A DNA stretch of 64,000 nucleotides, from assembly GCA_021787205.1 (NCBI GenBank), contig JAJYME010000006.1, positions 15,644-79,643 on the forward strand. Reading direction: 5' to 3'. Below, in pieces: positions 3,865 to 57,985 of this stretch (position 1 is its first letter; each line of letters opens with the position of its first letter). This stretch comes from a bacterium (GTDB lineage Bacteria > Patescibacteriota > Minisyncoccia > UBA6257 > Colwellbacteraceae). Made by a program: the position numbers and the translations under genes. The notes beneath the pieces are model-generated. The model was not told where the DNA came from, made no database searches, and saw only the letters and a program-made list of their open reading frames with translations.

Positions 3865-4908
3865 TTATAAGGTGACTTCCCTCGGTCTCGCCTGGCTGGC
3901 CAGCATCCTTTCATACTTGTCAAAATCCTCAACGATATCTCCCAAGCCCCTGATAACACAGGTTTGCGGCTCAGCGATAAGATTAGTTTTGACGGTTGTT
4001 TCCTTTTCGATATGGCGTTCTATGCCACGAAGCAAAGAGCCGCCCCCCGAGAGATAGATTCCCTTCTCGAGAATATCTCCGACAAGTTCCGGCGGACATT
4101 CTTCTATGAGACCTCTCGCCGCATCAGCAATCGTTTTCAATGACTTCGTGATTGCCAATCGGACATGGGAGTTTTTAACCATTACCTCCTTCGGCAATCC
4201 GGAGCTCAAGTCTCTTCCGCGGATAGTCATCTCAAGCTTTTCATCAACGGTGATGGCCGAACCGATCCTGATCTTTATCTCTTCCGCCGTCGGTTCTCCA
4301 ATCGCCAGATGAAACTCATCTTTGATGTATTTGATGATATCCTCGTTCATTTTGTCTCCGGCAACCTTCAAGCTCCTCGAAGTGACTGAACCGCCGACGG
4401 AGATTATTGCCATTTCGGTCGTTCCTCCTCCGATGTTTATGATCATATTTGCCGTCGGTTCGTTTATCGGCAAGTTTGCTCCCAGAGCTGCGGCGATAGG
4501 AATCTCAACAAGATACACCTTGGAAACTCCGGCCGAGAGAAGGACGTCCTCAGCCGATTTGCGCTCGACTTCGGTCATGTTTGAAGGAACTGCCAGGACC
4601 GCCAGACCGCATCTTGAGAAAAATCCGTTTTTGAGTTTCTCTAGGTGGTGCTTCATTATCTCCCCGGTCATTTCAAAATCGGAAACGACTCCTCCCTGGA
4701 TGGGACGGACAACGGTGATATGCTGCGGAGAACGGTCTAACATCCTCTTCGCTTCCGCTCCCACGGCTACGATTTGCCCAGTCTTGTTGTTGATGGCGAT
4801 AATCGTAGGTTCGGAGACGATGATTCCGGAACCCTTCAGATAAACCAAGGTATTGACCGTTCCCAAATCGACTCCTATTTGATAATTAAAGTTTTCGAAT
4901 ATCTTCAT
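3865..4908 (-). CDS. mreB: Actin-like rod shape-determining protein MreB
   Basis: Has the GIDLGTVNTLVY phosphate-1 motif and the LSGGGSLLRG phosphate-2 motif. 347 aa. Confidence 0.9.
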   Translation of the reverse strand: MKIFENFNYQIGVDLGTVNTLVYLKGSGIIVSEPTIIAINNKTGQIVAVGAEAKRMLDRSPQHITVVRPIQGGVVSDFEMTGEIMKHHLEKLKNGFFSRCGLAVLAVPSNMTEVERKSAEDVLLSAGVSKVYLVEIPIAAALGANLPINEPTANMIINIGGGTTEMAIISVGGSVTSRSLKVAGDKMNEDIIKYIKDEFHLAIGEPTAEEIKIRIGSAITVDEKLEMTIRGRDLSSGLPKEVMVKNSHVRLAITKSLKTIADAARGLIEECPPELVGDILEKGIYLSGGGSLLRGIERHIEKETTVKTNLIAEPQTCVIRGLGDIVEDFDKYERMLASQARPREVTL

Positions 4909-6100
4909 AATTCAGTATTTCAAGTTCTTCTTTTGCTCGGCGCTTTACTTCTATTTTATCACCAAGTTTCTCACTGACAACCAGACGGATCGGAAGCCCT
5001 AAGAGGTCCGCATCGGCGAACTTCTCTCCAGCGGAGACATCCCTGTCATCATAAAGGACGGACATCCCCTCTCCCGTCATCTTCTCATACAACTCTTGTC
5101 CAAGACCCCTCTTTGTCTCAATCAGGTGGAATTTGAACGGCGCCACGCCTTCAGGCAAGATTATACCCTTATCATCATGGCTAGCCTCGACGATTGCTCC
5201 TAAGAGACGTGAGACGCCAATTCCGTAACAACCCATGATTGCCTCTTTGGTTTCCCCATTCTGGTCCTTGAATTTCATTTCGAAAGCCTTTGAGAATTTG
5301 GTTCCAAGCTTGAATATGTTTCCTACTTCCGCCGCCTTTATCGGCTGCAGATTCTTCTCGCCGCAAACGGGACAAGTATTTTGTTCTTCATAAATCTCGT
5401 CATTGACGGCAACGTGGCATTTCTCGCACAAATGGATCAGGTCTTCTCCAGCATCGGTTATCATCTGGAATTCATGAGAATATTTGGCGAAAGTCCCTCC
5501 GGACGCATAGGTCAAGACTGTCTTGTCGCCAATTCCCAATTCCTGGAAAACGGCCGTGTAGGCCTTGGTCATCTTTTCGTAATAATCATCCAAGTCTTCC
5601 TGGTTGGTGTGGAAGGAATAGAGATCTTTCATATAAAATTCCCTTCCTCTCATCAATCCCGATTTGGCTCTCTTCTCATCCCTGAATTTCCATTGGAATT
5701 GGAATACGGAAATGGGCAAGTCCCTGTATGAAGAAACGTTGGCTTTCACAAGCGGAGTGACTATCTCTTCATGGGTAGGACCCAGGACATAATCAGTTCT
5801 TGAGTAAAAGCTGGTGAAGCGGAACAGGACATCGAGCGTATCATACCTTCCGGTCACTTCCCAAGCAGACTTTGGATGAAGGGCACTCATATAGATCTCC
5901 GATCCTCCGGCGGCAACCATGTGCTTTCTGATGATGTTTTCGATATTCTTTAGAGCCATCAAACCCAAGGGAAGATAGCTATAAACTCCAGCCATGATCT
6001 TGTAGACATAGCCGGCGCGCAAAAGGAGCTTGGCATTCAACGATTCCTCATCCTGCGGATTGAACTTTTGGGTTTTTGAAAAAAGTGATGATTGTTTCAT
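4886..6100 (-). CDS. proS: Prolyl-tRNA synthetase, short form (404 aa)
   Basis: Class II aaRS with the motif-2 sequence RAKSGLMRGREFYMKDLYSF, typical of ProRS. The N-terminus aligns with ProRS (LLLRAGYVYK...LPLGL). Confidence 0.8.
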   Translation of the reverse strand: MKQSSLFSKTQKFNPQDEESLNAKLLLRAGYVYKIMAGVYSYLPLGLMALKNIENIIRKHMVAAGGSEIYMSALHPKSAWEVTGRYDTLDVLFRFTSFYSRTDYVLGPTHEEIVTPLVKANVSSYRDLPISVFQFQWKFRDEKRAKSGLMRGREFYMKDLYSFHTNQEDLDDYYEKMTKAYTAVFQELGIGDKTVLTYASGGTFAKYSHEFQMITDAGEDLIHLCEKCHVAVNDEIYEEQNTCPVCGEKNLQPIKAAEVGNIFKLGTKFSKAFEMKFKDQNGETKEAIMGCYGIGVSRLLGAIVEASHDDKGIILPEGVAPFKFHLIETKRGLGQELYEKMTGEGMSVLYDDRDVSAGEKFADADLLGLPIRLVVSEKLGDKIEVKRRAKEELEILNYEDIRKL

Positions 6101-28929: not shown

Positions 28930-29532
28930 CTATTCCAAGATTCCATCGAGATTGACATCATACAAAAGCGATTCGGAAATAAGCTTATAAGCAATCAACT
29001 CGTTCTCCGAGAACCAAAGCATAATTTCCTTCTCCGCCTCTTCAACCGATCCGGAAGCATGGACAATATTTCTAACCGCCCTGCTGTCAGTATCTGCCAA
29101 GATGTAAGAGTCGATAGTCAAATCCCCCCTGATGGTTCCGACATCAGATGAAGCCGGCTCAGTGCTGCCGACAATCTTCCTGGTCGTTGTGACTGCTCCG
29201 ACTCCTTGCCAAACCATGGCAACGACCGGTCCGGCTGTAAAGTACTTGATCAAACCGTCCAGGACTCTCTTTCCAGCTTCTTCCGGATTTTTATTCGGGG
29301 CCTCTAAGCCCTTCTTCTCATAAGCAGAAATAGCCTTATTGCCGACTTTGACCAACCATTCTGGATCGATCAAGTAATGCTTGTTTACCAATTCGCTGGT
29401 CGGAACGATCATCTTGATGGCAATCAACTTCAAACCGACTCTCTCAAATCGGGAGATTATCTCTCCTATCAAAGCCCTTTGGACTCCCTCTGGCTTTACT
29501 ACCACTAATGTTTTTTCCTTCTTGATATCCAT
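28930..29532 (-). CDS. ndk: Nucleoside diphosphate kinase with an insertion and a C-terminal extension
   Basis: VVVKPEGVQRALIGEIISRFERVGLKL, GPVVAMVWQG, TIRGD and NIVHASGS (active-site His) motifs. Confidence 0.85.
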   Translation of the reverse strand: MDIKKEKTLVVVKPEGVQRALIGEIISRFERVGLKLIAIKMIVPTSELVNKHYLIDPEWLVKVGNKAISAYEKKGLEAPNKNPEEAGKRVLDGLIKYFTAGPVVAMVWQGVGAVTTTRKIVGSTEPASSDVGTIRGDLTIDSYILADTDSRAVRNIVHASGSVEEAEKEIMLWFSENELIAYKLISESLLYDVNLDGILE

Positions 29533-29555: not shown

Positions 29556-30953
29556 TTATTTTTGAATCTTTAAATGAAGCTCCTTTAACTGCTTCTCTTC
29601 CACTTCCGCCGGAGCGGACATCATGAAATCCCTGCCATCTCCCGTCTTCGGGAAGGCCATTACCTCTCTGATATTCGGTTCGTTTTCCAAAATCATCATC
29701 AAACGGTCAAAGCCGAAAGCTAATCCGCCGTGTGGCGGGGTGCCATAATCAAAGGCTTCAAGCATATGCCCGAAGTTGTTTGATATCCTCTCCTCGGCAT
29801 AACCCATGATTTCAAAAACCTTTCTCAGCGCCGCCGATTGGTGATTCCTGATAGATCCGCCTCCTATTTCGAAACCGTTCAAGACGATATCGTATTGGGT
29901 AGTCAAGATTTCCGGAATGTTTTTCTTATTCATCAAATCTTCCATGAACTCTGGCTTAGCTGCAGAAAACGGGTTGTGAGTGAAAGTCCATCCCCCTTCA
30001 TCGGCTTTCTCGAAAAACGGGAAATCAATGACCCAGCAGAAAGCCAAAAGGTTTGGATCTTCCTTGTTCTCCCTGATATCCGGCCTGTCGGTTCCATACT
30101 TTTCCATCGCCTCCTTATAAGTGATCTTCGGGAAGGGCATTTGTTGGATTTTCTTTTGGGGATAAACCTCTTGGACGAATTTGATAAGAGCGCCTTCAAT
30201 CATCTCCATGACATCCTCCCTGTTCACAAAGCTCATTTCGAGGTCGAGCTGGGTAAACTCCGGTTGTCTGTCGCCTCTAGTATCTTCATCTCTGAAACAC
30301 TTGGCGAATTGATAATATCTCTCGAGTCCAGCCGCCATCAGAAGCTGCTTGTATTGCTGGGGAGATTGGGGCAGGGCGTAAAAATTGCCCGGATAAACTC
30401 TTGAAGGCACAAGATAATCGCGCGCTCCCTCCGGAGTTGATTTGGTTAGGACCGGGGTTTCCACTTCGGTGAAATCATTTGCCGCCAAAAAATCTCGGAA
30501 GAACTTGAAGGTCTTTGCCCTGTTCCTCATATTCTTGGCCATTCTCGGACGTCTGAGGTCGAGATAGCGGTATTTCATCCTGATATCCTCATTTATATCC
30601 TTTCCATCAGTCGTGACGTCGATCGGAGGAGTAAGAGACTCATTTAAGATTTCCAACCCTTCGACCTGCATCTCCACCGTTCCGGTGACGATTTCCTCAT
30701 TGACCATCGAAGCCGGTCTCTCGGAAATCTTGCCGGTAAGCTTCACCACCCATTCGTTACGCAAGTTCTTGGCAAGCTCGTAGACGGAATTGTCTCCGTC
30801 TTTCTTGGGGAAGAAAACGGTCTGAATGATCCCGGTTCGGTCGCGAAGGTCGATGAAAATCAACTTACCGTGATCGCGTCTGGAATCAACCCAGCCCATT
30901 ACCTCTACCGTCTCCCCTATTTTTTTTACTGTATCCTTGATTAAGGTACGCAT
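29556..30953 (-). CDS. aspS: Aspartyl-tRNA synthetase, short form lacking the GAD insertion (465 aa)
   Basis: Class II motif 2 FRDEDTRGDRQPEFTQLDLEMSF, plus an N-terminal OB anticodon-binding domain. Confidence 0.85.
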   Translation of the reverse strand: MRTLIKDTVKKIGETVEVMGWVDSRRDHGKLIFIDLRDRTGIIQTVFFPKKDGDNSVYELAKNLRNEWVVKLTGKISERPASMVNEEIVTGTVEMQVEGLEILNESLTPPIDVTTDGKDINEDIRMKYRYLDLRRPRMAKNMRNRAKTFKFFRDFLAANDFTEVETPVLTKSTPEGARDYLVPSRVYPGNFYALPQSPQQYKQLLMAAGLERYYQFAKCFRDEDTRGDRQPEFTQLDLEMSFVNREDVMEMIEGALIKFVQEVYPQKKIQQMPFPKITYKEAMEKYGTDRPDIRENKEDPNLLAFCWVIDFPFFEKADEGGWTFTHNPFSAAKPEFMEDLMNKKNIPEILTTQYDIVLNGFEIGGGSIRNHQSAALRKVFEIMGYAEERISNNFGHMLEAFDYGTPPHGGLAFGFDRLMMILENEPNIREVMAFPKTGDGRDFMMSAPAEVEEKQLKELHLKIQK

Positions 30954-30956
30954 TTT

Positions 30957-31191
30957 TTATTTTTTATTATTAACCTTTTGTTACTAAAAACGCCCTCACA
31001 CACTCAAAAAAATGAGTATGTAAGGGCGAGTGAAAGTTTCGCGGTACCACCTTACTTTCCATAAGCTTTTAATTACAAGGCAATCTTTCTTATGGCTTTA
31101 TCGAAGCGTTAACGGGCTTCTCCCGTGAAGTTCTACTCTCCCAAAGGATTTCTTCTTCAAGCTCGGCTGTGTTGGCAGCGTCACGGCTTAT
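30957..31191 (-). promoter_or_regulatory. T-box riboswitch leader with intrinsic terminator, upstream of aspS
   Basis: Minus-strand AAGGTGGTACCGCG T-box sequence (plus 31040-31053), immediately followed by the terminator hairpin CGCCCTTACATACTC…GAGTGTGTGAGGGCG and TTTTT. Confidence 0.7.
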
Positions 31192-31198
31192 TGGTTGA

Positions 31199-31227
31199 TT
31201 TATACCATAAATCAATAAAACCCGCAA
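31199..31227 (-). promoter_or_regulatory. Putative sigma70-type promoter driving the T-box/aspS transcript
   Basis: Minus strand TTGCGG, a 17-nt spacer, then TATAAAT. Confidence 0.4.
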
Positions 31228-35522: not shown

Positions 35523-37013
35523 TTATTTTTCAGTTTGTTCTTCTTCGGTTATCGGACTGCCCGTGTGATTGATCGAATCCACTTTTTTGGATTCGGCGGA
35601 CTCCTCTTTCGATTTTAAGAGATCCGATAGGGCGTCTCTTAAATCATGAAGTTCTTCTTCGGTCTTTTCCTTTTTAACCGGTTTCAAAATGTCCTTGGGA
35701 GAAACCTCGTTTCTTCTTACTGCCCGGGACTCAACCGATTCTTTGGTTTCCCACTTCTCGGCGACTTGTTTCTCAACAGTCGCTCTGGGCAAAGTGTAAT
35801 TTCTCCTTGAGTTCTCGATTATGAGATCAGTAAAGGTCTCCTCGGGAGCTCTTAAGAAGGGCATATTTTGGGCTGAAAACGGACGCGAAGCGACACCGTC
35901 TATCATCAACTTGAGATAAACGTTGTGCTTGGCCGTATTTACCAGGTCTTCAGCGGTGATTTCCGGAGAGAATTCTTTCTCCAAGCTCTCCGCGTCCTCC
36001 GCTCCGACCCTGAAAGCGACAATCGTTCCTACGTTACCGAAGACGGCGCCGCGGACAGAGTCGCTTAATTGTTCGATATATTGGTGGGCCAAGATCAGTG
36101 ACAGATGGTATTTTCTGGCTTCTGACAAAATGACCGCGAAAGAATCGGTTGAGAAGTTTTGGAACTCGTCGATATACAAGAAGAAGTCCTTGCGGTCTTT
36201 CTCCTGGATATCGATTCTGGACATCGCCGCTTGTTGCAACGTCGTGATAAGCATTGCTCCCAACAAGGCGGAATTGTCCTCTCCGACCCTTCCGTGCGAA
36301 AGGTTGGCAATAAAGATCTTCTCAGAGTCCATGATCTCCCTCATGTTGATGGAAGATTTGGGTTGCCCGATTATATTCCTGATCAAAGGGTTGGCAATGA
36401 ATTGCCCGACTTTGTTCTGGATGGCCGCCACCGCTTCTGCGGCGTAGCGGTCAGAGTATTTTCCAAATTCGTTTACCCAGAAGTTCTTGACCATCGGGTC
36501 TTCGATCCGGCTGACGATGTCATTTCTGAATTTCTCGTCAGAGAAAAGTTTCATGACATCGAGCAAGGTCGTTCCCGGAAATTCGATCAAGGCCAAAAGG
36601 GCGTTGTTCAAGATATATTCCATTCTGGCCGACCAGGCGTCAACCCAGATTTTCTTGAAGACTCCCATGATCCCGGAAGCCACCAAGTGGCTCCTGGATT
36701 TGTCGGTGACCTCAAGAGGATTGAATCCTATCGGGTAATCGATATCGGACGGATTGAAGTAGACTACGTCTTGGATTCTTTCCGCCGGGACGAAATCAAG
36801 CATCTTTTCGGCAAATTGCCCGTGAGGGTCAATAAGTCCCACTCCTCGGCCGGAACGGATATCGTCTACTATCATGTTCTCCATCATAGTAGTCTTTCCC
36901 GTACCAGTCTTACCGATCAAATACATATGGCGCCTACGGTCGTCGGTCTTGATTCCGAAGGTGGTAAGCTTGTTTCTGAAAGTTGTTTGTCCAAAAAAAT
37001 TGATATCGCTCAT
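35523..37013 (-). CDS. Soluble TraG/TraD/VirD4-like (FtsK-HerA superfamily) P-loop ATPase with an acidic C-terminal tail
   Basis: Walker A LIGKTGTGKTT, Walker B FFLYIDEFQNF, then ILAHQYIEQLS (the TraG-D_C-like DEF…Q..QL pattern). The last 60 aa are Glu/Ser/Lys-rich. No TM segment. Confidence 0.6.
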   Translation of the reverse strand: MSDINFFGQTTFRNKLTTFGIKTDDRRRHMYLIGKTGTGKTTMMENMIVDDIRSGRGVGLIDPHGQFAEKMLDFVPAERIQDVVYFNPSDIDYPIGFNPLEVTDKSRSHLVASGIMGVFKKIWVDAWSARMEYILNNALLALIEFPGTTLLDVMKLFSDEKFRNDIVSRIEDPMVKNFWVNEFGKYSDRYAAEAVAAIQNKVGQFIANPLIRNIIGQPKSSINMREIMDSEKIFIANLSHGRVGEDNSALLGAMLITTLQQAAMSRIDIQEKDRKDFFLYIDEFQNFSTDSFAVILSEARKYHLSLILAHQYIEQLSDSVRGAVFGNVGTIVAFRVGAEDAESLEKEFSPEITAEDLVNTAKHNVYLKLMIDGVASRPFSAQNMPFLRAPEETFTDLIIENSRRNYTLPRATVEKQVAEKWETKESVESRAVRRNEVSPKDILKPVKKEKTEEELHDLRDALSDLLKSKEESAESKKVDSINHTGSPITEEEQTEK

Positions 37014-37021
37014 ATGTTATT

Positions 37022-38449
37022 TTATTCGATTGGCAGGTTGACTGGAGGAGGCGTCTTCTTGGTCTCAACGGGAGCCAAGCCAGAGGCCTGTGATTTGCGA
37101 TTGACTGGAGGATGGAAAAGGGTCGCTAGCTCCTCCGCGTTCAAGATGAACGGTTCCGGAAGGTTCTTTTTATATTTTATTTCCAGGAACTCGATCTTGA
37201 AAAGATTCATGAAAGATACTCTCAGATTGTCGAACATATCCTCGACATTGCTGTAAGGATAGATCGTCCTCGCCTTGTAGTATCTGTACATCGTGTGTTT
37301 CCTCTGATCCAAGATCTCCTTTTTTCTGAAGAAGCGGCTCGGCTTGGTAAAGGTCGGGCCAGGTCTCAGGAAGTTAAGATGTTGGGTGTTAAATTGCTGG
37401 AAAGAAGACATCATTGCCGGGAAGTTAGTCTTGTCAAAAGACGCTTTCTTGTCGATGTAAATCATCCTGATGGATGTCTTGAAGGCTGATTTGCTCGCTT
37501 TCCTGTCGATGTTCCTTAAAACTTCGATATCAACCGGACTCAACTGTTCGTCTTTCTTGGCTTCTGGCTTTGCAGGCGCTTCCCATTCGGGGTGCGTTAT
37601 TGCCGCCATCATCAAATTCTTCCCGAATTCGGCTGAAGTTCCGGCGATACTCTCAAGAGCTCCTTTCTTCGCCTCAGCTTCCTTCTTATCCTTGAGGATT
37701 TTCTTAGTTATCTTCTTGACCGCATCCTTCAAATCTCCGGCTGAAGGAGAGATGACAATTTGGATGCACATCCTCTCCTCGCTGGACTTAAGTCCGGACA
37801 TGACTTCCGAAAGATGGGAAATCGGGTCTATTTCGTACTCCTCGAATTTTCTTTCTCCAAAGAAGTATGAATATGTTTTCAGCGGATAGGCGCTATCCTT
37901 TCCCAAAATCAAGTCGGTTCCTAAGATATCGTATTCGGAGTCAGGAAGGTCAGCCGGAAAATCACTGAGATAATCATTGGCTTCGACTATTTCCGTTTCC
38001 GGATATTGGGAGAATATCGCTTTTTCGAAAAGGGTTCTGTATTTCTTATTGACGCGGATGAAGAAGCGGATTCCCTCTTTCGAGGAAACCATCTCCAGCG
38101 CGGCTGATTCTTCGAACTGACCGGCAAGATACTTCTTCTCGGGCATGATTCCGAAGCTGTAAATCTGATAAAAGGCGGAAAAGACGTTTTCCATCGCCTT
38201 AGGAAACACTTCGTTGTTTCTCGGAAACTTCAATTCCAAGAAAATCCAGTTGAATTCTTTGTCATAGAACCTTTCCTGAGCTTCATCTAACCACCAATTA
38301 TGAAGGAAGGAGAACAAAAATTTTGCCAGGATGAAGGCTAGGACAAACCAGATAACAATGGAAAAAATCGGCTTTATGACACCGATTGTTTCCTTAACTA
38401 TATTCCAAAAATTGACGGTAAATAAATCAAAAATATCAAAGGCAGACAT
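37022..38449 (-). CDS. Single-pass membrane protein of unknown function (475 aa), partner of the ATPase
   Basis: N-terminal TM IFSIVIWFVLAFILAKFLFSF, then a large soluble domain with a Lys/Glu-rich central linker. Start and stop lie within 15 nt of the flanking genes. Confidence 0.5.
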   Translation of the reverse strand: MSAFDIFDLFTVNFWNIVKETIGVIKPIFSIVIWFVLAFILAKFLFSFLHNWWLDEAQERFYDKEFNWIFLELKFPRNNEVFPKAMENVFSAFYQIYSFGIMPEKKYLAGQFEESAALEMVSSKEGIRFFIRVNKKYRTLFEKAIFSQYPETEIVEANDYLSDFPADLPDSEYDILGTDLILGKDSAYPLKTYSYFFGERKFEEYEIDPISHLSEVMSGLKSSEERMCIQIVISPSAGDLKDAVKKITKKILKDKKEAEAKKGALESIAGTSAEFGKNLMMAAITHPEWEAPAKPEAKKDEQLSPVDIEVLRNIDRKASKSAFKTSIRMIYIDKKASFDKTNFPAMMSSFQQFNTQHLNFLRPGPTFTKPSRFFRKKEILDQRKHTMYRYYKARTIYPYSNVEDMFDNLRVSFMNLFKIEFLEIKYKKNLPEPFILNAEELATLFHPPVNRKSQASGLAPVETKKTPPPVNLPIE

Positions 38450-46549: not shown

Positions 46550-46891
46550 CTAGGCGCCGCAGGAAAGATCTTCCAAACTGATCCTTCTCCTTGCATTCTC
46601 TTTCTTTCTGTTCATGACGGTGGCTTTGATTTCCTCCTTCGCCAGCTCGGCTTCCAGTCTCTCCTTAACACCAGGCGCTTGCGATTGTGGCAGCGTCAGC
46701 TGGTGTCTGAGATCCGCAATCCTCTGTTCTATCTTGCCGGCGGCCCTGAGCAGCCTTGCATAATACATGGCGCTATAAAAGGCGTTATACCCTTCTCCTC
46801 CCTGAGTCGGGACTTTCTGCATGCGAACACCCCCATTCACAAAACCAATTGGATCTGCTTTCAAATTACAACTTTTCAGGTCTCTAGTCAA
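46550..46891 (-). CDS. Hypothetical small protein
   Basis: 113-aa ORF upstream of grpE followed by a terminator hairpin at 46520-46548. No motif found. It is not HrcA. Confidence 0.3.
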   Translation of the reverse strand: MTRDLKSCNLKADPIGFVNGGVRMQKVPTQGGEGYNAFYSAMYYARLLRAAGKIEQRIADLRHQLTLPQSQAPGVKERLEAELAKEEIKATVMNRKKENARRRISLEDLSCGA

Positions 46892-46926
46892 TTATTTCTC
46901 CACCGAAAATCCACATCTTCTTCACT

Positions 46927-46955
46927 TTGCCGCCAAGTCAAAACCTGGTTATAAT
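46927..46955 (+). promoter_or_regulatory. Putative sigma70-type promoter for cysS, giving an apparently leaderless transcript
   Basis: TTGCCG, a 17-nt spacer, then TATAAT. The ATG of cysS begins 7 nt after the -10. Confidence 0.5.
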
Positions 46956-46961
46956 CAACTT

Positions 46962-48422
46962 ATGCTAAAGATCCTAAATACCCTTTCGGGAGGAAAAGAA
47001 GAGTTTAAACCGATATCCGATAAAGTTGTTGGGATCTATTCCTGCGGACCGACAGTCTATGGCAGGGCCCATATCGGCAACATGCGCTCTTATGTTTTTG
47101 CCGATATTTTGCACAAAACGCTTGAATACCTCGGCTATAGGGTTGAGCACGTGATCAACATTACCGATGTCGGACATTTGGTCAGCGACGAAAACGAAGG
47201 CGAGGATAAGATGGAGAAAGGCGCCAGACTGGCGGGCAAATCGCCGTTTGATATCGCAAGGGAATACGAGAACCTCTTTTGGAACGATCTTCGCGAGCTT
47301 AATATCGAGAAGGATGAGTTTTGGAAGACTCCTAGGGCGACCGAACACATCAAAGAACAACTGGGGATGATCAAAACCCTGACCGAGAAGGGCTTCACCT
47401 ACGAAACCTCGGATGGGATTTATTTTGACACTTCCAAATTCAAGGATTACGGCAAGCTCTCGAAACAGAACCTGGAAGAAAAGTTGTCCGGCGCCAGAGT
47501 TGAGGCGAAGGGTGAAAAAAAGAACCCGACCGACTTCGCCCTTTGGAAGTTCTGCGTCGGGGAAAATTCCGACCATATCATGAGGTGGGACTTTGAGGCT
47601 AATGATTTGCACGAAGCGCCCCGTCTATCAGAAGAGGAAAATCGAGCGAAAAAGATCGGTTTTCCGGGATGGCATATCGAATGTTCGGCTATGAGCACCA
47701 AGTACCTGGGCGAAAGGTTTGATATCCACACTGGCGGCATCGACCACATCCCCGTCCATCATGAGAACGAAATCGCCCAATCCGAAGCCGTTTTTGGCCA
47801 CCCCTTCGTCAATTATTGGATGCATAACGAATTTGTCCTGGTCGATAATGGCAAGATGTCCAAGTCCTTGGGAAACGTTTACACTTTGGACGATCTTAAG
47901 GAAAAGTTTGACGTCTCGCCTCTCGCCTTCCGTTATCTCTGCCTTCTTACCCATTATCGCACTCCCCTGAACTTCACCAAGGAAGCAATCGAAGCCGCCG
48001 GAATCGGACTGTTCAATCTCAGACATCAAGTCCTCTTGTTGGCCAATGAGGATGGCGTTAATGACCTTCACCTGGAAGCTGTCAAAAAATACCAAAAAGA
48101 ATTTGCCGACAATATTGAGAATGATCTCAATACCGCCGAAGCTCTGGGAACCTTATACGGAGCCCTGGCTGACAATACCCTTTCCGCCAAAGAAAAACTG
48201 TCTCTTTGCGTCGAATTCGATAAGGTCCTCGATCTTGACCCGACCAACCTTATAAAATCTGCTGATGACCCCAAAGTCACGACCTTGATGCAGCAGAGAG
48301 AGGAATACCGAAAATCAAGGCAGTTTGACAAAGCGGATGAAATGAGGCTTGAGCTTGAAAAAATGGGCTATATAGTAGAAGATACAGCCAAAGGGACGAT
48401 AGTATATAAAAGAATGGAATAA
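46962..48422 (+). CDS. cysS: Cysteinyl-tRNA synthetase
   Basis: HIGN (HIGH) and KMSKS motifs with a Zn-binding Cys (CGPTVY). Start placed at MLKILNTL. Confidence 0.9.
   Translation: MLKILNTLSGGKEEFKPISDKVVGIYSCGPTVYGRAHIGNMRSYVFADILHKTLEYLGYRVEHVINITDVGHLVSDENEGEDKMEKGARLAGKSPFDIAREYENLFWNDLRELNIEKDEFWKTPRATEHIKEQLGMIKTLTEKGFTYETSDGIYFDTSKFKDYGKLSKQNLEEKLSGARVEAKGEKKNPTDFALWKFCVGENSDHIMRWDFEANDLHEAPRLSEEENRAKKIGFPGWHIECSAMSTKYLGERFDIHTGGIDHIPVHHENEIAQSEAVFGHPFVNYWMHNEFVLVDNGKMSKSLGNVYTLDDLKEKFDVSPLAFRYLCLLTHYRTPLNFTKEAIEAAGIGLFNLRHQVLLLANEDGVNDLHLEAVKKYQKEFADNIENDLNTAEALGTLYGALADNTLSAKEKLSLCVEFDKVLDLDPTNLIKSADDPKVTTLMQQREEYRKSRQFDKADEMRLELEKMGYIVEDTAKGTIVYKRME

Positions 48423-56851: not shown

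Positions 56852-57985
<1,134 letters not shown>

Follow-up and report, generated by a model that had tools for sequence, protein, structure and literature searches.

The DNA analysed here, referred to as the window, is a 64,000-nucleotide (nt) stretch, or 64 kb, of contig JAJYME010000006.1 from a member of the Colwellbacteraceae (Patescibacteria), an ultrasmall bacterium, and the element under study is the leader of its aspS gene, which encodes an aspartyl-tRNA synthetase (AspRS). On the minus strand, the MBL-fold gene upstream ends in TAG (31235-31233), and the open reading frame (ORF) of 465 amino acids (aa) identified as aspS begins with ATG (30953); the 280 nt that separate them hold a T-box region. 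The features of the locus, numbered by position in the window, are:

31199..31227, minus strand: putative sigma-70-type promoter, with a -35 element TTGCGG (31227-31222), a 17-nt spacer, TG (31207-31206) and a -10 element TATAAA (31204-31199).
30986..31192, minus strand: T-box leader RNA of about 207 nt that runs from the estimated transcription start through the U-run, with a match to RF00230 and a fold z-score of -4.8.
31160..31188, minus strand: ultrashort Stem I, made up of a kink-turn (K-turn), a 4-bp helix GCUG/CAGC and a 6-nt apical loop CCAACA (31175-31170).
31173-31171, minus strand: predicted specifier codon AAC (Asn), followed by the conserved purine A31170.
31126..31159, minus strand: Stem II with an S-turn, having the base UGAAG/CUUCA, AAGAAA (31154-31149), AGUAGA (31137-31132) and the apical UCC-UUU-GGG.
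31103..31125, minus strand: Stem IIA (CGGG/CCCG, 31125-31113) and proposed IIB pseudoknot, in which the loop GAAG(C) (31120-31116) would pair with GCUUC (31107-31103).
31059..31095, minus strand: Stem III of 7 bp (CCAUAAG/CUUAUGG) with a 23-nt apical region, then AA (31058-31057).
31020..31055, minus strand: antiterminator, with helix A1 GUAAGG/CCUUAC, the 7-nt bulge UGGUACC, helix A2 GCGA/UCGC and a 9-nt loop.
30986..31028, minus strand: intrinsic terminator, with a 16-bp stem (31028-31013 with 31006-30991), a 6-nt loop UUUUUU and a run of five U (30990-30986).
29556..30953, minus strand: aspS, a bacterial-type AspRS of 465 aa without the GAD insertion, identified by NCBIfam, Pfam and PDB alignments.
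28930..29532, minus strand: ndk, nucleoside diphosphate kinase (Pfam NDK), 23 nt 3' of aspS.

The T-box 14-mer AAGGTGGTACCGCG (as RNA, AAGGUGGUACCGCG) was found at 31053..31040 of the minus strand as a single copy in the window, where 0.10 chance matches are expected with 2 mismatches allowed. It matches the T-box consensus AGGGUGGNACCGCG and forms the 5' side of the antiterminator together with the 7-nt bulge that starts with UGGN; the UGGU of this bulge is at 31049-31046 and its predicted partner is the 3' NCCA end of a tRNA. A terminator scan identified the arms CGCCCTTACATACTCA and TGAGTGTGTGAGGGCG, spanning 31028..30991 in 16 pairs that are GC-rich at the base. The 5' arm doubles at 31028-31020 as the 3' strand of the antiterminator and the two structures therefore cannot coexist, their stabilities being -7.5 kcal/mol for the antiterminator alone versus -28.1 kcal/mol for the terminator. 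A 32-nt A-rich sequence separates the last U of the run (30986) from the ATG of aspS, leaving the start region clear of the hairpin, which argues for transcription attenuation and not for sequestration of the ribosome-binding site. The Shine-Dalgarno-sequestering platform of the translational class was likewise absent from the leader, as the hairpin with its five U does not pair with the start region.

The putative promoter directly follows the TAG that ends the upstream MBL-fold gene. A consensus promoter scanner made no call at the TTGCGG/TATAAA site (31227-31199) because the -35 element fits at only 3/6 positions. Promoter-like sites occupy the equivalent position in three relatives described below (L163, L023 and L070) and the promoter is conserved in a fourth (L161), and the site is consistent with a functional promoter. 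The original prediction, made from the letters of the window, had claimed a T-box sequence on the minus strand followed by a terminator hairpin and TTTTT, and both were recovered, the former unique in the window and the latter with its T-run at 30990..30986. The T-run had been placed 5 nt before the aspS start, which is incorrect given the gap of 32 nt, while the promoter named there (TTGCGG, 17-nt spacer, TATAAA(T)) is present as letters but uncalled by the scanner. The description of the leader as a textbook T-box was accurate for the competition between antiterminator and terminator but not for the architecture of Stem I.

An Rfam scan of the whole window at the gathering threshold returned three tRNAs and no T-box. 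With E-value thresholds and the leader alone, RF00230 matched 31193..31019 from end to end (model positions 1-219, E = 2.2e-10), aligning Stem II, Stem IIA, Stem III and the T-box/antiterminator well. On the evidence of its sequence and predicted folds, the aspS leader is almost certainly a functional T-box attenuator.

Relatives of this leader were collected from 160 loci encoding AspRS relatives, in 17 of which a T-box precedes aspS in the same orientation, and a relaxed motif sweep of 145 loci revealed no convincing further members. After the addition of closer relatives by protein search, the family included 21 related aspS leaders from Patescibacteria in all. The close AspRS relatives were all from the Patescibacteria, or candidate phyla radiation (CPR), including Paceibacteria, Parcubacteria, and Colwellbacteria, and an identical leader was present in assembly GCA_027339325.1 (contig DAHWOP010000007.1). 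The window and the loci L161-L168 share the gene order ComEC, MBL-fold gene, leader (where present), aspS, and ndk, and compare as follows:

Window: Stem I loop CC-AAC-A.
L161: AspRS 95% identical to that of the window; leader present, Stem I loop CU-GAC-A.
L162: AspRS 81% identical; leader present, Stem I loop CC-GAC-A.
L163 and L164: AspRS 76% identical; leader present, Stem I loop UU-AAC-A in L163.
L165: AspRS 76% identical; leader truncated by the contig end.
L166-L168: AspRS 72-73% identical; no leader, only 27-45 nt preceding aspS.

Stem I of the window leader closes after 4 bp and has none of the features of a long Stem I (specifier internal loop, S-turn, AG bulge, and distal loop platform). 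At its foot, the K-turn consists of the C-stem AGC/GCU, the bulge CGU, and tandem G.A pairs at 31182-31181 and 31164-31163. Covariation of this stem was scored in alignment A1 (11 leaders), where 77/77 helix cells held standard pairs and 23 cells had changed on both sides, giving a score of 0.818; shuffles scored 0.187 (none of 500 reached the observed value) and slid registers no more than 0.11. The 3-nt bulge and the tandem G.A pairs of the K-turn were invariant, and its C-stem covaried through AU, GC, GU, and UA pair types. AAGC and GCUU each occur twice in the leader (31189-31186, 31162-31159, 31119-31116, and 31107-31104) and were accounted for by the C-stem of the K-turn and the proposed pseudoknot of the IIA loop. 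RNAalifold replaced the C-stem by a helix between the 5' AAGC and the distal GCUU, a solution that was rejected, the distal pairing being invariant and the proximal one covarying across the wider family; the alternative long-range AAGC/GCUU pairing may form during folding.

The apical loop displays the codon. In 18 apical-loop leaders, all upstream of aspS, the codon was only GAC (11 leaders) or AAC (7 leaders), always with a purine next to it, and it occupied positions 3-5 of a 6-nt loop in 15/18, while the two bases that precede the codon in the loop varied freely. The chance expectation of GAC or AAC plus a purine at a fixed register is 0.017 per sequence. AAC is thus very probably the specifier of the window leader, in line with the suggestion of the original prediction that the codon might be AAC instead of GAC. 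A specifier for Asn and not Asp fits an aspS gene only if the AspRS charges tRNA-Asn as well.

The remaining elements of the decoding and discriminator regions were also supported by comparison among the leaders. The S-turn signature (5' A(A/G)GAA and 3' (A/G/U)UAGA) was identified in 13/18 leaders first analysed. Pairs of Stem II were counted directly, a MAFFT alignment (A3) having been discarded for its mis-registered strands, and the helix flanking the S-turn was paired in 52/52 cells with nine different sequence pairs, versus 13-36/52 in shifted registers; among the close relatives of the window, 4/5 base pairs at the base of Stem II had changed on both sides. RNAalifold, applied to four close relatives, recovered Stem I, the base of Stem II, Stem IIA, and the antiterminator. 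The Stem IIA hairpin was aligned by Rfam and is invariant within the clade of the window, and the IIB pseudoknot is a candidate pairing whose strands read AGC:GCU in other leaders and GGC:GCC in L028. Hairpins of unrelated sequence occupy the position of Stem III in relatives (CACGUACC/GGUAUUGUG in L162 and UUCUC-UCCGGC/GCCGGA-GAGAA in L163), and Stem III of L161 differs from that of the window by a 13-nt loop indel.

For the antiterminator, alignment A2 (13 leaders) was 95.3% paired with 14 cells changed on both sides, and 0/500 shuffles reached its score. An equivalent terminator was found in 18/18 leaders analysed, with stabilities of -18 to -34 kcal/mol and at least five U, starting 17-44 nt past the T-box motif. 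The fourth base of the bulge is U (UGGU) in the window, L161, and L028 and C (UGGC) in the other relatives, regardless of the codon. Bacterial tRNA-Asp and tRNA-Asn have the discriminator base G73. The UGGU/UGGC pattern would be compatible with this base, as C pairs with it and U wobbles, although UGGU otherwise implies A73. In Trp T-boxes UGGU opposite G73 is common, the U-G combination occurring in 46% of them (TBDB, PMC7778990).

The gene under the control of this leader encodes an AspRS by the NCBIfam models, scoring 651 bits with the aspS equivalog (cut-off 443) and 149 bits with the asnS model (cut-off 414). Residues 11-298 align with residues 14-298 of the Thermus thermophilus AspRS and residues 304-463 with its residues 419-577, an alignment that skips the GAD insertion and agrees with the GAD-less enzyme of 465 aa that the original prediction described. 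This insertion, of approximately 120 residues, defines the bacterial-type AspRS in the literature (PMC4206432). Approximately 150 Patescibacteria AspRS relatives are similarly short (about 450-495 aa), and Verrucomicrobia matches, L071, and L073 keep the long form. Downstream, ndk is probably co-transcribed with aspS and under T-box control as well, and the aspS-ndk order is conserved in L161-L168.

The specificity of this enzyme can be approached through the alternation of the codon. The window has AAC whereas L161 has GAC, with 95% identity between the AspRSs and 100% identity of the discriminator and terminator. Between the same two leaders the base of Stem II shows a compensatory change (GAAG/CUUC to GAGG/CCUC), and the leader is therefore under selection in both. 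More widely, L104 (AAC) nests among L046 and L028 (GAC) at 72-73% AspRS identity, AAC and GAC being interleaved on clustering by AspRS similarity, and the leaders of a separate clade (L009, L010, L026, L034, and L089) all have AAC. Judged from these sequences, the GAC/AAC switch has happened several times, and no other codon was seen. An AspRS gene whose orthologous leaders alternate between GAC and AAC points to an enzyme that most likely charges both tRNA-Asp and tRNA-Asn, and we therefore consider the AspRS of the window to be probably non-discriminating. For such an enzyme, either uncharged tRNA would be a valid signal of low AspRS activity. The leader is thus interpreted, with good confidence, as a tRNA-responsive T-box that attenuates transcription of aspS, and probably of ndk, with an AspRS that is most likely non-discriminating.

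Several points weigh against this interpretation. The RF00230 score of the leader (51.2 bits) is below the gathering score of 93, and 0/17 related leaders scanned with Rfam reached that score; the low value arises because 4 nt stand in for 74 Stem I model positions. The original prediction had proposed a scan with RF00230 and a Stem I with a specifier loop and distal AGAGA/GA motif as its checks. The former gave a match by E-value thresholds though not by the gathering score, and the latter was absent, with no side bulge or distal platform and the codon in the apical loop; decided on these two points, a genuine T-box would have been wrongly rejected. Published work also holds that an elbow-binding platform is necessary in transcriptional T-boxes for fast tRNA capture, and so small an RNA would have to catch its tRNA ahead of the polymerase with no such platform. 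Genes for tRNA-Asn and tRNA-Asp were absent from the window and the related loci, and the predicted pairing with anticodon and discriminator is read from the leader. Among the ORFs of the window there was no asnS, GatA, or GatB, nor any AspRS paralog (AsnRS or LysRS), as the original prediction had stated for asnS, although 64 kb is just a part of the genome and this absence proves little.

A residue of the enzyme gave a similarly divided answer. A histidine equivalent to His28 is presumably tied to tRNA-Asn recognition, as H31 of Pseudomonas aeruginosa. His28 lies in the anticodon-binding domain and aligns with a His of the Asp/Asn ligase 4wj3, while the Asp-specific enzymes of Escherichia coli and T. 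thermophilus have Leu. It was considered as a determinant of the specifier when it accompanied 6/8 AAC versus 0/9 GAC leaders, and was rejected once His was found together with GAC in L161 and L162. With Gln at this position in the AAC-type loci L010 and L104, the residue fails to follow the specifier and serves as no more than a weak hint of non-discrimination.

The leader could sense tRNA-Asn while the AspRS is an ordinary discriminating enzyme, with Asn starvation raising AspRS or Ndk indirectly, or with an AsnRS existing in the genome and AAC being a cross-regulatory quirk. Non-discrimination is indeed deduced, His28 is not diagnostic, and the view of asnS and gatCAB is confined to 64 kb. 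However, a T-box normally reports on the tRNA charged by the enzyme that it controls, AAC is found in no fewer than four distinct lineages of AspRS, and alternation of GAC and AAC between enzymes with identical anticodon-binding segments would be hard to explain, such that a discriminating AspRS appears improbable.

A further explanation is that AAC is a recent neutral or harmful G to A mutation of GAC, resulting in a mis-specified or permanently "off" switch, and that the Asp-sensing state of L161 is the functional one. This would accord with GAC in the nearest relative (L161, 95% AspRS identity) with the remaining discriminator identical, and with most close AspRS relatives having no T-box, which suggests that the element is dispensable in the lineage. 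Nevertheless, AAC alone was seen out of the nine single-base neighbours of GAC, and it occurs in 7 apical-loop and 2 side-bulge leaders from several lineages with the 3' purine always kept. The identical leader in the assembly record GCA_027339325.1 and the probable lethality of permanent termination of the only aspS in the window also argue against a mutational accident, and we regard it as quite unlikely.

A conventional Asp-specific T-box, having as its specifier the GAC at 31182-31180 (GUGACG) or a longer Stem I that takes in upstream sequence, has in its favour that this GAC stands 9 nt 5' of the loop and that the gene is aspS. The GA of that triplet, however, belongs to the tandem G.A pairs of the K-turn, and the next base is C, A, G, or U among relatives. 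The approximately 45 nt from the upstream stop codon to the K-turn are filled by the promoter and leave no room for a long Stem I, in agreement with the Rfam alignment of 4 nt to the Stem I portion of the model, and this explanation is very improbable. Translational control through sequestration of the ribosome-binding site, in which the hairpin would not be a terminator, follows the known ultrashort-Stem-I T-boxes of the surveyed literature, all of which act on translation, but is scarcely tenable for a 16-bp hairpin with a GC-rich base and five U that ends 32 nt before the ATG with the start region uncovered, and that is kept with at least five U in 18/18 leaders analysed.

Under the preferred interpretation of a tRNA-responsive attenuator, transcription would start approximately 7-10 nt past the TATAAA box. 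The nascent RNA would first fold the small decoding module, with the K-turn and 4-bp helix showing AAC and its 3' purine in the 6-nt loop, followed by Stem II with the purine string of its S-turn, braced by the IIA/B pseudoknot. By analogy with the actinobacterial ileS T-boxes, Stem II would then dock on the codon-anticodon helix, and without a distal Stem I platform the tRNA elbow would not be contacted. The tRNA bound would be tRNA-Asn, whose anticodon GUU (possibly QUU) would pair with AAC. A gene coding for tRNA-guanine transglycosylase (TGT) is located at 56852-57985 (minus strand) of the window, so that position 34 of tRNA-Asn and tRNA-Asp, the partner of the C of AAC or GAC, may be queuosine. 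If the tRNA is uncharged, its NCCA end would pair with the UGGU bulge and stabilise the weak antiterminator, allowing read-through, while a tRNA bearing any aminoacyl group would leave the 16-bp terminator to form and transcription to stop 32 nt before the ATG.

T-boxes with an ultrashort Stem I in front of actinobacterial ileS were reportedly described by Sherwood et al. in 2015. Reviews and single-molecule papers recognise two T-box classes, one transcriptional with a long Stem I whose distal platform is stacked on the tRNA elbow, and one translational, mostly comprising actinobacterial ileS. In reviews to 2024, the elbow platform is essential to the transcriptional class because tRNA capture must precede the arrival of the polymerase at the terminator, and a short Stem I is treated as a feature of translational switches. 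The apical-loop specifiers of the latter are accompanied by a Stem II that makes up for the missing elbow contact (PMC7583486; PMC11297988), and in the actinobacterial ileS structures the purine string of the S-turn reads the codon-anticodon helix (PMC7583486). Ultrashort-Stem-I ileS T-boxes are cited there for Mycobacterium smegmatis, M. tuberculosis, and Nocardia farcinica, with the structures 6UFG and 6UFM (as cited in PMC7583486).

The window leader resembles these ileS T-boxes in its apical-loop specifier, very short Stem I, basal K-turn, Stem II S-turn, predicted IIA/B pseudoknot, lack of a double-T-loop platform, and discriminator with Stem III and UGGN bulge, a likeness of described features and not of compared sequences. 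In contrast to the ileS T-boxes, which hide the Shine-Dalgarno sequence and act on translation, the window leader and the 18 leaders analysed end in an intrinsic terminator, and they differ further in phylum (Patescibacteria versus Actinobacteria), gene (aspS versus ileS), and codon (AAC/GAC versus AUC). With canonical transcriptional T-boxes such as Bacillus subtilis tyrS and glyQS, the leader shares the 14-mer, 7-nt bulge, A1/A2 helices, terminator, K-turn, and Stems II, IIA/B, and III, but its Stem I is without their specifier internal loop, S-turn, AG bulge, and distal loop. The closest known counterpart is therefore a composite, the decoding module of actinobacterial ileS joined to a Firmicutes-type terminator.

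A second precedent is the T-box of the Clostridium acetobutylicum transamidation operon, which is said to have been reported by Saad et al. in 2012 and 2013. It responds to tRNA-Asn and controls an operon of gatCAB and a non-discriminating (ND) aspS (PMC4052509; PMC4206432), and as far as these accounts describe it, it shares with the window leader an Asn-codon specifier over an enzyme of the indirect Asn-tRNA-Asn pathway. According to the same accounts it belongs to the Firmicutes and differs in the two overlapping codons (Asn and Glu) of its specifier loop, in its multi-gene operon, and in the presence of three AspRSs in that organism, while the window leader has a single codon in an apical loop upstream of aspS-ndk.

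Published surveys place T-boxes in Firmicutes, Actinobacteria, Chloroflexi, Deinococcus-Thermus, and a few Deltaproteobacteria. A literature search for T-boxes in CPR/Patescibacteria found no report, though several primary T-box papers lay outside its coverage and a prior description is possible. In the window leader, an ultrashort Stem I with an apical specifier is newly combined with a terminator, an Asn codon, and a GAD-less AspRS, in a phylum without described T-boxes.

The family also includes leaders of other forms. L009 (1300-1345) and L034 (2225-2275) have AAC-A in a bulge on the 3' side, capped by a tiny distal hairpin; such an "intermediate" Stem I suggests a route of interconversion between the apical-loop and side-bulge forms. 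L010 (2620-2760) and L026 (2140-2290) have the K-turn, a short Stem I, and Stem II without Stem IIA/B and Stem III, and are intermediate steps in the size series of the family. Smaller leaders were identified in L023 (2770-2930), L025 (2170-2330), and L070 (2810-3000), in which a single hairpin with a loop of 7 nt (CUGACAU or UUGACGC) comes after the promoter and precedes approximately 30 nt, the T-box, and the terminator. These show no Stem II S-turn signature, Stem IIA/B, or Stem III and are apparently without Stem II; L112, whose AspRS is 90-92% identical to theirs, has a leader with all those stems. In published work, binding of tRNA by a short Stem I is minimal when Stem II is missing.

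In six loci, unrelated ORFs are inserted between the T-box terminator and aspS (L009 1515-2972, L010 2752-2970, L026 2285-2989, L034 2515-2859, L060 1338-1799, and L089 1709-2471) and, from this placement, would fall under tRNA control. By eye from the translations they comprise a 72-aa DUF1653-like, a 200-aa HD-like, 53-58-aa CxxC, and HIT-like proteins. They were considered as candidates for GatC and rejected, being unrelated small ORFs of which none is GatC-like.

Elsewhere in the window, further aminoacyl-tRNA synthetase genes were cysS (46821-48422, plus strand) and one for a class II enzyme that carries an HGTP anticodon domain (4886-6100, minus strand). No T-box was found upstream of either, and aspS is the only T-box-controlled gene in the 64 kb. 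At 35523-38449 (minus strand), a gene coding for a TrwB/TraG-like type IV coupling ATPase (496 aa) adjoins a 475-aa ORF without a Pfam match; this pair was considered as gatB/gatA and discarded on the basis of these assignments.

Opinion is evenly balanced as to whether the Patescibacteria hold an unrecognised minimal class of T-box that terminates transcription without an elbow platform, has a specifier flipping freely between Asp and Asn, and serves as an in vivo readout of a non-discriminating GAD-less AspRS. As the whole family is below the Rfam threshold, T-box regulation in this phylum is probably under-counted. The union of a short decoding module with a terminator would mean that the long-Stem-I rule may not be general, or that transcription is slow or paused, or that another contact replaces the elbow platform. 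Very small tRNA-responsive terminators would also be attractive engineering parts. For the organisms themselves, the GAC/AAC alternation would provide a cheap sequence marker of which tRNA reports on the AspRS, and indirect evidence that the GAD-less AspRS serves the indirect Asn-tRNA pathway.

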